Shown: in pieces, positions 12,249-40,283 of the stretch | How positions within the stretch are numbered: the stretch's first letter is position 1 | How the letters are laid out: the number at the start of each line of letters is the position of its first letter | Source: a virus | Lineage: Duplodnaviria; Heunggongvirae; Uroviricota; Caudoviricetes | Length of the DNA: 64,000 bases | Strand: one strand, 5' to 3' | IMG/VR virus record: IMGVR_UViG_2713896908_000007 | Program-made: the position numbers and the translations under genes | Notes under the pieces: model-generated | The model's input: the letters and a program-made list of their open reading frames with translations, nothing else | The model's database searches: none | Told to the model about the DNA's origin: nothing

Positions 12249-13114
12249 TTAAGTTAATTCTTTCAGCGCCAGTACATGAAATGGCTGAAGCATTTAAGCG
12301 GGTATTCGCAAATGCAGATAATGTGGATGTTGTAGAAAAAACATTTGAAGCAATCCCGGAATTTGACTGCATGGTCAGTGCGGCAAACAGTTTCGGGCTA
12401 ATGGATGGCGGCGTTGACGCTGCCATTACTGCATTCTTTGGTACTCAGTTACAGACACGTGTTCAGAATCATATTCTTCGTGAATATCTTGGTGAGCAGC
12501 CTGTAGGCACTGCATTTGTTATTGAAACGGGGGATAACAACCATCCCTGGCTGGTACATGCGCCAACAATGCGCGTTCCGCTGACCATTGACGGAACAGA
12601 CGCTGTATATAACGCCACGTGGGCTGCTTTACTTGCCATCTTTCAGCACAATAAAAATGCAACGACAGACAGGAAAATAAAGACGGTGGTATTCCCTGCA
12701 ATGGGGGCCGGATGTGGTCAGGTGCCGTTTGAAAGTGTTGCCCGGCAGATGAAGCAGGCATGGGATAACTTTAATAAAAAAACAGAAGCAATTAACTGGG
12801 AATACGCACACTCCCGCCAGTTGGCAGTATTTAATACATGCGCGTACTGCCCGGGTACTCCTGTTTGTCGTTATGCGGATATTAAATATATTGGACTTGG
12901 CGATTACCGGACGTATTGCTTACGGTCGGGGCAGGTATGCATTAATCCTGAACATCAGGTTGATGACGTGCTGACTAATAATCGTTCTCGCCCGGGGGCG
13001 CATATGCATCAGATTAATCCGGTAAAATCCGTAGGTAATATTGCCATTGGCGCACACAGCCACGGAAGGAATATCACCATTGGTGCTCATTCCCATACCC
13101 CACATAAACAATAA
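12245..13114 (+). CDS. macro-domain protein with tail-fibre-like Cys-rich and IGAHxH C-terminus
   Basis: 289-aa ORF, ATGA overlap with fibre gene stop; macro signatures [40 protein letters not shown]-terminal GAHMHQ…IGAHSHG…IGAHSHTPH. Confidence 0.7.
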
Positions 13115-13717: not shown

Positions 13718-13733
13718 TTTATATATTAATAAG

Positions 13734-13770
13734 CCACTGTTGACAGGACTGTTTTACAGTGGTTTGTTTT
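13734..13770 (+). terminator. rho-independent terminator of tail-fibre operon
   Basis: Stem ccactgt/acagtgg followed by tttgtttt. Confidence 0.6.
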
Positions 13771-13771
13771 A

Positions 13772-14920
13772 TTATCCAAACCAATTTTCTAGAACATTTT
13801 CAAATTTATGGGTAACTTGCCACCATAAATAGTTCTCTAATACATATTTCTTTCCGTTATTTGCAATTTGTTCTAATTTTTCGGAGTGTAATGTTTCATA
13901 TATATCACTAGCTAAACTTTCTGGCAACATTGGTTCATTTATATGAAATCCTGTATGGTTATTTTTTACAAATTCAACCATTCCACCTCGAGTGCTAACT
14001 AAAACGGGTTTTCCTGCCCCCATAGCTTCTATAGCAACCATGCAGAACGGTTCTTGAAACTGAGATGGGATTACAACTAGATCGGCTATAGGATAGTAAC
14101 GGTACATATCATCTGGTTTTACCCCGCCAACAAGATGACAACGCGAACCAATAGTTCCAGCAAGTTCCCTTACTTGTTTTTGATATGCAGCTTTTTCTCC
14201 TTTATCTTTATTATTGTAGTCACCAACAACTACAAGTTCTATATTGTCACATGATTTTATCAATTTTTTAAACGCTTGTAATAGTAAAACAGTCCCTTTT
14301 TCAGGGGAGATCCTTCCCGCATAAAAGATAACTTTTTTCTCAGAGGGAATGCCTAAATCTTGTTTTGTTAGCGGGGGTAGCCCTTTATCTAGATTGTGTG
14401 GTTCTGTACCATTAGGAACTATACAAATTTCAGCGTCAGGAAGATGTTTTTCATAAAAATCCTTTAAATACTGACTTGGAACAAGCATTTTCACATTGCT
14501 ATCTAGCCCTTTCGGTGTAAAGGCATTATGCATATGCATTATCATTTTTGCGTCAGGAGCTTTCTCTCTAATTTGACGATAAAGTTTCATGCTGTTATGA
14601 ACAATAATAATGCTATCGTTTGTGATATTGAAATCTTTAGCAATGTTTAACACTCGTTGTGAATATGGAATAGGATCTATTCTGCTCCATTTTTGAAATA
14701 TCCGTTTATAAAGACGGCTAAACCCTATTCTATGGATAGAGCATCGCTCATTAACAATATCTTTTTCTGAGAAACCATCCTCTCGAATGCATGCTATACG
14801 ATTTGGTATTCTTGTTCTCTTTGCGACTTGATATATCCAAGTTTCAACAGCTGCTGCGCCACGAGGTGGTATTGAAAATATTGGTGTAACTGTAAATATT
14901 AATTTGTCAATCATGAGCAA
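13772..14920 (-). CDS. GT4-family (GT-B) glycosyltransferase
   Basis: 382-aa ORF; C-terminal EX7E-type motif region …VSTRGGMVEFVKNNHTGFHINEP…; AT-rich codon usage; TTG start overlapping upstream gene. Confidence 0.8.
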   Translation of the reverse strand: MLMIDKLIFTVTPIFSIPPRGAAAVETWIYQVAKRTRIPNRIACIREDGFSEKDIVNERCSIHRIGFSRLYKRIFQKWSRIDPIPYSQRVLNIAKDFNITNDSIIIVHNSMKLYRQIREKAPDAKMIMHMHNAFTPKGLDSNVKMLVPSQYLKDFYEKHLPDAEICIVPNGTEPHNLDKGLPPLTKQDLGIPSEKKVIFYAGRISPEKGTVLLLQAFKKLIKSCDNIELVVVGDYNNKDKGEKAAYQKQVRELAGTIGSRCHLVGGVKPDDMYRYYPIADLVVIPSQFQEPFCMVAIEAMGAGKPVLVSTRGGMVEFVKNNHTGFHINEPMLPESLASDIYETLHSEKLEQIANNGKKYVLENYLWWQVTHKFENVLENWFG

Positions 14921-15458
14921 CTATCCTCTTATAATCTTTTTCCTTTAAATGTTTTTTTGGGGTTGCGGGAGAGCCCGCATACATTGTATTAGCAGGAACA
15001 TCAGTATTTACAACGCTATTTGCAGCTATAACACTATTGTCTCCTATTTTTACACCTGGTAGCACAGTTGTATTTGCCCCAATCCAAACATTACGGCCTA
15101 TTTTTATTGGAGCGCAAATTGTTTCTTTGGGACGTTTGCTTGGTGTTAGTGGATGCGTGACAGTTGTTAATACAACGTTGGGGCCAATGGCAGAGTTACA
15201 TCCAATATCTATTGTTTTTGCATCGAGAAAAACACAATTTGCGTTAATGAAGACCTTTTTATCAATAATTATATTGCCATTCTCAAAATAAAATGGAGCT
15301 GTTATTGTTGAGTCTTCACTTACTTTAACTCCTGTTTTTTTTAATGTGATTAATTTTTTTCTTTTTGAGATCAAGGTATAATTAAATATATGTCTTGCTT
15401 TCTTTGCTTTCTTTTTTTGAAAAATTATATAGAAATAATATGTTAGCAAATCAAACAT
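14907..15458 (-). CDS. hexapeptide-repeat (LbH) sugar O-acetyltransferase (maltose/galactoside acetyltransferase family)
   Basis: …IGCNSAIGPNVVLTTVTHPL…IGRNVWIGANTTVLPGVKIGDNSVIAANSVV… hexapeptide repeats; Lys-rich N-terminus encoded by A7-A8 tracts. Confidence 0.8.
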   Translation of the reverse strand: MFDLLTYYFYIIFQKKKAKKARHIFNYTLISKRKKLITLKKTGVKVSEDSTITAPFYFENGNIIIDKKVFINANCVFLDAKTIDIGCNSAIGPNVVLTTVTHPLTPSKRPKETICAPIKIGRNVWIGANTTVLPGVKIGDNSVIAANSVVNTDVPANTMYAGSPATPKKHLKEKDYKRIVAHD

Positions 15459-15482
15459 TGTTGTTTTACTTCCATTTAAAAT

Positions 15483-15812
15483 TTAACTATCAAATGTGGC
15501 TCCTATTTCTCGCATTTTGTTAAGTATGATGTTTATTTCATTGCTACCGAGAGAAGTTTGGGCAGCTATGAAAAAAAGTATGTGCAATGACATAGATCTG
15601 TTATTTTCTTTGTTTATATATTTTCTCCACTGGCTATCGCTGCTGACCCCGGCTAGTTCTGCCATTTGATTCCCTGTATACCCAAGCGTTTCTTTGAATT
15701 GACGCAAATCTTGTGATTTGGGGGGGGTGTAGTTGTTTATTAACCTCATATTAAACCCATTATTGGTAAGCTTTCGTTGGTGTAATGGTAGCACCAATGG
15801 GGCTGCTGTCAA
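15483..15812 (-). CDS. small helix-turn-helix protein (putative regulator of the downstream acetyltransferase/GT genes)
   Basis: 109-aa ORF with TTG start (possible internal ATG start giving 88 aa); …LRQFKETLGYTGNQMAELAGVSSDSQWRKY… resembles an XRE-type HTH; AT-rich. Confidence 0.45.
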   Translation of the reverse strand: MTAAPLVLPLHQRKLTNNGFNMRLINNYTPPKSQDLRQFKETLGYTGNQMAELAGVSSDSQWRKYINKENNRSMSLHILFFIAAQTSLGSNEINIILNKMREIGATFDS

Positions 15813-15892
15813 GCGTCTTTTCTTTATAAATATAGGGAGCCATCAAAATCTGACATTAATTATCTATCGAAATATTTTGAATGACTGGTGAG

Positions 15893-15911
15893 AAGTTACT
15901 TTGCATACCAT
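15893..15911 (+). promoter_or_regulatory. candidate late promoter (AAGTTACTT-N4-TACCAT) for lydA-darA operon
   Basis: 9-bp inverted repeat plus -10-like hexamer about 30 nt upstream of the GTG start, which has an AGGAGG RBS. Confidence 0.5.
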
Positions 15912-40255: not shown

Positions 40256-40283
40256 GTAAAAAAAAGGCGGCCTTTAGGCCGCC
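40256..40283 (-). terminator. hairpin plus U-tract immediately upstream of ref start (terminator/attenuator-like)
   Basis: ggcggcc-ttta-ggccgcc followed on the minus strand by nine T, ending 4 nt before the ref ATG. Confidence 0.45.

Follow-up and report, generated by a model that had tools for sequence, protein, structure and literature searches.

Adenine tracts at the 5′ end of a phage-plasmid-borne sugar O-acetyltransferase gene: a probable by-product of clustered lysine codons, with one length-variable A8 run

Results

A three-gene island in a P1-like phage-plasmid

Positions 14907..15458 of the window (the whole 64,000-nucleotide stretch of DNA that was analysed, to which all coordinates refer) carry, on the minus strand, a gene for a sugar O-acetyltransferase of 183 aa, in which a three-helix N-terminal domain is followed by a left-handed β-helix of the LacA/Maa type. 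It is the middle one of three minus-strand genes, encoding, in this order, an XRE regulator, the acetyltransferase, and a WaaK-like glycosyltransferase. The first operon gene (15483..15749, minus strand) specifies an 88-aa XRE-type helix-turn-helix (HTH) protein that matches phrog_20491 (E = 5e-25) and, weakly, HTH_31, the latter over residues 36-66 of a 109-aa ORF version of the gene. This longer version would start at a TTG at 15812, which we dropped in favour of the ATG at 15749, because that TTG falls within the TTGACA hexamer of a site resembling a promoter, and because several records call the protein at 88 aa. The site in question, TTGACA-16-(TG)TACCAT (15785..15812, minus strand), lies upstream of the ATG and agrees with the consensus at 10 of 12 positions; promoter-like sites are no commoner in the region overall than in its shuffles, and this one is a consensus match only. 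The third gene (13772..14914, minus strand) encodes a GT4 glycosyltransferase of the WaaK-type LPS N-acetylglucosaminyltransferase subfamily, matching Pfam Glycos_transf_1 and, over its full length (residues 3-381; 657.9 bits against a cut-off of 618), the WaaK/RfaK family model PRK15484 of NCBIfam. Its ATG overlaps the stop codon of the acetyltransferase gene: ATGATTGA.

The island has a GC content of 24-39%, compared with ~50% in its flanks. A macro-domain gene and a tail-fibre assembly gene lie on one side and lydA/lydB/darA, with lysis genes among them, on the other; these neighbours identify the element as a P1-like phage-plasmid. With plasmids of E. albertii the region shares 99.9% identity, and with those of E. 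coli and E. fergusonii 98.5%, the exact acetyltransferase protein being on record once, from E. albertii; from sequence comparison, we assign the host element to the P1-like phage-plasmids of Escherichia albertii. When the operon was searched against the INPHARED phage collection by megablast, no match was returned. In a chromosomal prophage of Salmonella, a tail fibre gene, a macro-domain gene, a tail-fibre assembly gene, the glycosyltransferase gene and the acetyltransferase gene occur together, both enzymes being ~66% identical to those described here, and a Mu-like Salmonella prophage carries the acetyltransferase gene alone adjoining tail-fibre genes. An 88-aa gene beside the orthologous Salmonella module was considered as the counterpart of the XRE gene and ruled out, as the two are not homologous. 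Location and content of the operon are those usual for a lysogenic-conversion module, the predicted target of which would be the LPS core. The LPS core is the receptor region of P1.

The lysine-rich N-terminus belongs to the conserved fold

The preliminary description of the locus, made from the DNA letters alone, had named the gene product an LbH acetyltransferase, an identity borne out by matches obtained with Pfam, NCBIfam, phmmer and Foldseek. The Pfam Hexapep model matched with E = 7e-15 (54 bits against a cut-off of 27), and an AF2 model built with 27 homologues (pLDDT 92) folded the repeat region into a regular short-strand coil at pLDDT 94-98. The best NCBIfam matches were Maa and LacA, i.e. 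maltose and galactoside O-acetyltransferases (E ~ 1e-29), with scores of 103.4 bits for Maa and 101.8 bits for LacA, compared with equivalog cut-offs of 314 and 347, respectively. The enzyme is thereby classified as a member of a subfamily related to Maa/LacA, neither Maa nor LacA proper. This subfamily is enterobacterial and prophage-borne, has members of 168-183 aa, and is paired with a WaaK-like glycosyltransferase beside tail-fibre genes.

The same description had called the lysine-rich N-terminus unusual, a view that did not hold. When compared with solved structures by phmmer, residues 9-175 align to LacA/Maa with the lysine-rich segment included (alignments start at residue 9-17), KRKKLI of the present protein being paired with KRKELI of S. 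aureus SACOL2570; the NeuO structure 3jqy matches residues 44-166 (E = 7e-10). The AF2 model places helices at residues 2-13, 18-27 and 32-41 (pLDDT 87-94), and Foldseek superimposes it on Maa/LacA with TM-scores of 0.78-0.82 and 34-38% identity over 158-171 columns (~170 of the 183 residues). An N-terminal helical domain is thus indicated by phmmer, the AF2 model and Foldseek alike. The N-terminus is kept in 25 homologues down to ~40% identity, with K or R at matching positions. Homologues at 50-67% identity, from Salmonella, Serratia, Cedecea, Erwinia, Morganella and others, retain the basic clusters within the common pattern M..L.YYF..L.KK...A.R..FN....SK(K/R)K..IL.K.G, and the His of the T-H-P motif is invariant among homologues. 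Since homologues at this distance have the same pattern, the lysine-rich N-terminus is a conserved structural feature of the subfamily, corresponding to the three-helix domain that is also found in LacA/Maa. A membrane anchor, as a hydrophobic-then-basic N-terminus might suggest, is an unneeded assumption for a segment that aligns with, and folds like, the helices of soluble LacA/Maa.

Four A-tracts and two further repeats

The preliminary description had listed three tracts in the 5′ coding region, namely T8 (15335-15342), T7 (15354-15360) and T7 (15412-15418) on the plus strand; all are present in the sequence, and the peptides it quoted (QKKKAKKA, KRKK and LKKT) are correct on translation of ORF 15458..14907. 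On the coding (minus) strand, tract 1 is an A7 run (15412..15418; sense nt 41-47) within CAA AAA AAG, encoding Q14 K15 K16, tract 2 an A7 run (15354..15360; sense nt 99-105) within AGA AAA AAA, encoding R33 K34 K35, and tract 3 an A8 run (15335..15342; sense nt 117-124) within TTA AAA AAA ACA, encoding L39 K40 K41 T42. At codons 14-16, tract 1 contains the heptamer A_AAA_AAG in frame; tracts 2 and 3 give A_AAA_AAA. A fourth A7 run near the 3′ end (14952..14958, minus strand), which had been overlooked, encodes part of P-K-K-H near the C-terminus and is invariant among relatives. The gene also contains two in-frame copies of the 9-nt tandem repeat AAAGAAAGC (15397..15414, minus strand), encoding K-K-A-K-K-A. 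In the HTH gene, a C8 tract (15720..15727, minus strand; G8 on the plus strand) lies within ACC CCC CCC AAA at codons 8-11. The interval 14952-15727 holds six of the 22 homopolymer runs of at least 7 nt in the whole 64-kb window.

Tract number and length follow from the encoded lysines

Judged against nucleotide composition, the A-runs are clustered. With mononucleotide shuffling, at least three runs in the first 130 nt arise with P = 0.002 and four runs in the whole acetyltransferase gene with P = 0.0006, and shuffling of codon order gives P = 0.005 for the run cluster. A synonymous shuffle, which permutes the gene's own codons (for Lys, 18 AAA and 5 AAG) and keeps the protein fixed, puts the mean at 1.9 runs for the first 130 nt, and three or more are reached with P(≥3) = 0.24. 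Nor does the longest run, of 8, exceed expectation (P(max ≥ 8) = 0.78), an A11 run appearing in 46% of synonymous shuffles. Repeats longer or commoner than coding predicts, as would mark a contingency locus, were thus not seen when set against synonymous shuffles, and because these yield similar counts and lengths, the excess of tracts comes from clustered lysines and not from codon choice.

Orthologues give a similar picture. At ~66% identity, the position of the A8 run is broken in all three orthologues (TCC AAG GTT, CGC AAT ACT and CGT AAA GCT). Tract 1 reads A5, A8 or A7, and tract 2 either A8 or a run interrupted by AGA, CGT or AAG; in the orthologue on a 49-kb E. albertii plasmid, ATG AAA AAG stands in place of the tract-1 heptamer. 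No tract is conserved at the same site, with tracts 1 and 2 intact in some orthologues and interrupted in others, and A7-A8 runs arise at other lysine clusters. As far as these alignments go, the runs track lysine clusters and local codon choice, no single tract being conserved. All four orthologues examined have at least one A7-A8 run in the first 45 codons, and the keeping of such runs in this interval could reflect selection for mutability, beyond the effect of lysine clusters alone.

The A8 run varies in length among close relatives

Plasmid, E. coli-genome, Logan, NCBI and IMG/VR sources supplied the relatives of the locus. They were gathered by DNA similarity, by exact look-ups of neighbouring proteins, which do not hinge on the state of the acetyltransferase gene, and by a pattern search in viral, metagenome and genome collections, with A6-A11 permitted at tract 3. 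After duplicate removal, positions 13720-15900 were scanned in 40 samples for one-base indels by run length. Variants numbered 0 in 1130 tract-samples for 4-nt runs, 3 in 724 for 5-nt runs, 0 in 107 for 6-nt runs, 0 in 159 for 7-nt runs, and 5 in 79 for 8-nt runs. Tract 3 was A7 in 3 of 39 samples (CP070291, ERR14335060 and GCA_027567895) and was the sole tract polymorphic within the gene in good assemblies, tracts 1 and 2 having a length of 7 in all 40 of these neutrally sampled relatives. The C8 run of the HTH gene was C7 in 2 of 40 samples (CP045689 and CP148313), one of an E. albertii-type and one of an E. coli-type background. An A9 allele of tract 3 was found in none of the 39 samples, and good assemblies show only −1 alleles. 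The earlier suspicion that the listed tracts are prone to slippage therefore finds support at the A8 run and none at the A7 runs: in the comparison of tract lengths among related genomes, which had been proposed as a check, only the 8-nt run varies in good assemblies and the 7-nt runs are constant.

Repeat length at tract 3 (A8 or A7) differs, and shifts the reading frame, among samples that are 98-99.9% identical. The A7 allele of CP070291, a finished plasmid, is retained in version 2 of the record (CP070291.2); three further similar places were found for the A7 allele of the Logan assembly ERR14335060 and one for that of GCA_027567895, whose sister assemblies from the same project, GCA_027565915 and GCA_027564935, have A8. 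The A7 alleles occur on three SNP backgrounds, as told by positions 14351 (G/A) and 15857 (T/C), by lydB variants, and by a 9-nt duplication in CP070291. [quoted passage not shown] The duplication in CP070291, an E. albertii plasmid (L005/L031/L044), raises the AAAGAAAGC repeat to three copies and adds KKA.

A 52-aa remnant ORF downstream of the frameshift served as a marker of the OFF state, in a search biased towards broken alleles; it was present in three contigs from E. albertii and in five short ones of E. coli type. Of three E. coli-type contigs read, one was noisy with five homopolymer indels, one had tract 2 as A6 (L063) and one had tract 1 as A8 (L064); changes at the two A7 tracts were seen solely in such single, metagenome-type Logan contigs. 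Full-length proteins were found on 28+124+91+41+22+20 contigs, compared with a handful carrying the remnant ORF. Neither the predicted OFF peptides (45, 48, 44, 44 and 35 aa) nor the in-frame 186-aa three-repeat allele was found in the collection by exact look-up; as such short ORFs are probably rarely called, the missing OFF peptides are not evidence of absence. N-terminally "partial" proteins of 115-169 aa were considered as frameshift products and rejected as contig ends, three samples breaking at the identical base. Elsewhere in the window, an A8 and an A9 run (40258-40265 and 48455-48463) both stand beside terminator-like hairpins; their plasmid matches are 87-93% identical, and the net length differences of 1-2 nt (at most 5 over truncated alignments) are not assignable to the tracts.

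Frameshifts remove the β-helix, and the operon carries other lesions

A gain or loss of one base at any of the three 5′ tracts leaves a product of 25-45 aa and removes the whole β-helix. The A7 allele of tract 3 encodes a 45-aa stub (MFD...LKKQELK), and the C7 allele of the HTH gene a 31-aa product. Given the stop/start overlap with the next gene, A7 alleles would probably also lower expression of the glycosyltransferase. A recurrent −1 change at the 5′ end of the operon's first enzyme gene is a pattern that also fits a contingency locus.

Other lesions were found among the relatives. A copy of IS5/ISKpn26 is inserted in the 3′ end of the acetyltransferase gene in CP117630, and a second copy adjoins the glycosyltransferase gene in CP104510. 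Lesions of the glycosyltransferase gene comprise truncation by IS1 and frameshifts at T5 and G5 runs and elsewhere; in CP070291, acetyltransferase and glycosyltransferase are both broken. In one E. coli clade, a nonsense change cuts the acetyltransferase to 172 aa, which is probably harmless, since this is the usual length of the Salmonella homologues. Overall, the pattern of lesions looks like erosion of the operon under weak selection.

Discussion

The evidence is most readily reconciled, and we think probably correctly, by regarding the tracts as a by-product of lysine codons, among which the A8 run acts as an ordinary slippage hot spot that generates null alleles. Conserved basic clusters in the three-helix N-terminal domain would be the source of Lys-Lys pairs. 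In this low-GC and presumably horizontally acquired gene, ~78% of lysines are AAA, and for that reason a Lys-Lys pair beside a codon that ends or starts with A would read as A7-A8. The A8 run would lose one A by replication slippage often enough for ~8% of the sampled relatives to carry an A7 null allele, and 7-nt A-runs would be an order of magnitude more stable and effectively fixed. The A7 null alleles would then represent mutational loss under weak selection in an operon that is predicted to modify the host LPS core, a situation nearer to Listeria inlA than to a dedicated reversible switch.

The preliminary description had instead envisaged on/off switching of the enzyme. A true contingency locus, in which the A8 run and perhaps the C8 run of the regulator gene are kept for reversible slipped-strand switching of an LPS-modifying operon, would produce lysogen populations in which receptor or antigen state differs between cells, in the manner of NeuO on CUS-3. 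Such a reading can draw on the change from A8 to A7 in 3 of 39 neutral samples and on three SNP backgrounds, on that from C8 to C7 in 2 of 40 and on two backgrounds, on the position of the tract early in the gene, where OFF products are 45 aa long, and on a stop/start overlap that would carry the effect into the glycosyltransferase. The NeuO precedent is documented (PMC8653822), and Orsi et al. view 5′ poly(A) tracts as general inactivation switches (PMC2831843). We nevertheless consider it rather unlikely: null alleles do occur, but eight bases are short for a switch, the alleles in good assemblies are −1 only with no A9 among them, tract count and length are those expected from codon usage, the A8 run is missing from orthologues, and intact alleles far outnumber OFF alleles. 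Irreversible lesions (IS insertions and other frameshifts) occur too, and CP070291, with both genes broken, has the look of decay. An extended form, in which the operon is a mobile contingency module of P1-like phage-plasmids, with C8 and A8 as independent slipped-strand switches and the glycosyltransferase translationally coupled, seems to us unlikely. If it were true, lysogens would be heterogeneous for LPS-core acetylation and GlcNAc addition, and would in turn vary in how susceptible they are to host defences and to phages that bind the core, among them P1-like ones.

That the length variants are homopolymer sequencing or assembly errors, leaving no real polymorphism and tracts without consequence, appears quite improbable. 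The stretch is technically difficult, in that short-read contigs of many samples break in its AT-rich 5′ part; five homopolymer indels fall within 950 nt of one clearly noisy Logan contig (L062), and in CP148313, for which no more than 67 features are annotated, 2.8 kb contain four indels. However, the A7 allele comes from three separate sources (a finished plasmid, an NCBI draft and a Logan assembly), the neighbouring 7-nt runs are correct in all A7 records, and the 9-nt duplication of CP070291 is not a homopolymer error. Most improbable of all is programmed recoding, i.e. transcriptional slippage on the A-runs, or −1 ribosomal frameshifting at the A_AAA_AAG of tract 1, that would yield a second product or tune the yield. 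The heptamer A_AAA_AAG is the dnaX slippery site of E. coli, and it is present here as CA[A AAA AAG] in the zero frame at codons 14-16. Yet every shifted frame stops at 25-45 aa in total and, with the shifted frames stopping at once, recoding has no second ORF to reach; by eye, the stretch (79% A+T) contains neither an upstream SD-like element nor a G+C-rich downstream stem, and the heptamer is not conserved in the orthologue of the 49-kb E. albertii plasmid. A run of at least 9 A/T, or an X_XXY_YYZ heptamer accompanied by stimulators and an alternative ORF, was not found at these tracts. The longest run, at 8 nt, is also below the threshold of ~9 nt (PMC1088944), the length from which selection against slippage in bacterial genomes is usually evident (PMC1088944).

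The literature searched held no mention of this locus or its A8/A7 polymorphism; frameshifting at a 5′ homopolymer is a kind of feature already well known. If the A8 run is a mutational weak point only, frameshifted or contig-broken copies of the operon are to be expected in the annotation and surveillance of P1-like phage-plasmids, and runs of lysine codons should not be taken as regulation. The phage-plasmid has been reported in ~41% of UK E. albertii isolates (bioRxiv 10.1101/2025.09.12.675607). If, on the other hand, the switch reading were true, Escherichia would have two mobile contingency loci with an LbH O-acetyltransferase, neuO on CUS-3 and the present one, which could influence how antigenic the LPS core is and whether phage receptors are available. 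The operon itself, which is common to Salmonella prophages, is a plausible candidate for a lysogenic-conversion or superinfection-exclusion module and, as such, is more interesting than its tracts.

Comparison with known systems

With LacA and Maa (PDB 1kqa, 1ocx, 3ftt and 3nz2), the acetyltransferase shares the same fold over ~170 residues, N-terminal helices included. It differs from them in scoring far below the equivalog cut-offs and in being paired with a WaaK-like glycosyltransferase beside tail-fibre genes.

As a precedent for switching, the preliminary description had pointed to phage-borne O-acetyltransferases, which holds for one case, that of NeuO. This enzyme, which O-acetylates polysialic acid in E. 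coli K1, is encoded by prophage CUS-3; its gene carries 14-39 copies of AAGACTC and needs only a few generations to switch (PMC8653822). Both enzymes are prophage-type, acetyl-CoA-dependent hexapeptide-repeat O-acetyltransferases with detectable sequence similarity, both genes adjoin a tail gene (that of the endosialidase in the case of NeuO), and in both a 5′ coding-region repeat determines the reading frame. [quoted passage not shown] The N-terminal domain is LacA/Maa-like here and a poly-psi domain in NeuO, and the likely substrate is the LPS core here, as opposed to the capsule for NeuO.

In Listeria monocytogenes inlA, a 5′ poly(A) tract is in frame as A7 and frameshifted as A6 (Orsi, Bowen, Wiedmann 2010, PMC2831843). 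The inlA frameshift has at least two origins, and its rates of 4e-8 to 5.5e-7 (within 1e-8 to 1e-6) are ~1000-fold above that of point mutation (PMC2831843). Unlike the inlA tract, which lies at codons 3-5, the A8 run described here lies at codons 39-42; the gene is phage-plasmid-borne, and its OFF alleles are rarer (~8%, compared with 18 of 79 lineage II isolates; PMC2831843). What the two have in common is a short A-run early in a gene related to the cell surface, the coexistence of in-frame and −1 alleles in close relatives, a frameshift of repeated origin (probably so in the present gene), and a very short product.

A variable C8 run in the first gene of the operon

The first gene of the operon, which encodes an 88-aa XRE-type regulator (15749..15483, minus strand), carries a homopolymer run of its own: a G8 at 15720-15727, read as C8 in the sense strand (ACC CCC CCC AAA) and covering codons 8-11. 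In two finished plasmids of different backgrounds, CP045689 and CP148313, we found this run to be shortened to C7, an allele for which the predicted regulator product is only 31 aa long. Variability of the C8 run was on a par with that of the A8 tract in the acetyltransferase gene. An 8-nt G/C run is also conspicuous in this low-GC island, where G+C content is ~40% locally and falls to a minimum of 24% nearby.

Two further long A-runs of the window, A8 at 40258-40265 and A9 at 48455-48463 (the latter neighboured by a TnpB gene of the IS200/IS605 type), look like terminator tails, as both are intergenic and adjoin a G+C-rich hairpin. Among relatives, net alignment length differs at these two positions by 1-2 nt (≤5 nt, in truncated alignments), a difference that may or may not lie in the runs themselves.

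Sequence variation at both ends of the acetyltransferase gene

At the 5′ end of the acetyltransferase gene, an in-frame tandem repeat comprising two copies of the 9-nt unit AAAGAAAGC (15397-15414; K-K-A-K-K-A) overlaps tract 1. In CP070291, a plasmid of E. albertii, the unit is present three times, which lengthens the loop joining helices 1 and 2 by one KKA. Many short-read assemblies have a contig end within codons 1-50 of the acetyltransferase gene (~15300-15420), with 'partial' acetyltransferases beginning at codons 15, 20, 30, 36, 39, 46 and 51, and with an identical break base common to three samples. These contig ends probably stem from low coverage or ambiguous extension across an A-rich stretch of 24% GC; alternatively, they may reflect tract heterogeneity within samples.

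At the 3′ end, the acetyltransferase stop and glycosyltransferase start codons overlap (14907-14914; ATGATTGA), an arrangement that suggests translational coupling of the two genes. This overlap is abolished in one E. coli clade by a G-to-T change at ~14941, the resulting premature stop yielding an acetyltransferase of 172 aa, which is the length of the Salmonella homologues. Immediately before the 3′ A7, at 14959, the window has C in its sense strand (CCA, Pro), whereas all other relatives have T (CTA, Leu). The exact acetyltransferase of the window is on record once, in a single E. albertii contig of 99,393 bp.

Damage to the operon was recurrent among relatives. In CP117630, IS5/ISKpn26 is inserted at the 3′ end of the acetyltransferase gene, and in CP104510 it adjoins the glycosyltransferase gene, which is truncated by IS1 in JCANKX01. 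Frameshifts in the glycosyltransferase lie at 14192, within a run of five T, in CP117651 and at 13850 in CP148442.

The acetyltransferase and glycosyltransferase genes in Salmonella prophages

Between a tail-fibre gene and a tail-fibre assembly gene, the window encodes a 289-aa macro-domain protein (12245-13114; Pfam Macro, E=2e-19), a position that is kept in a Salmonella chromosomal prophage. A putative ADP-ribose-binding or -hydrolysing domain is oddly placed among tail-fibre genes.

The acetyltransferase and WaaK-like GT4 pair (13772-15812) recurs at ~66% identity in this Salmonella chromosomal prophage, where macro-domain and tail-fibre-assembly genes likewise adjoin it, and a Mu-like Salmonella prophage has the acetyltransferase without the GT4, again adjoining tail-fibre genes. 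The pair resembles a portable module, with a putative role in LPS-core conversion, that is linked to tail-fibre cassettes.
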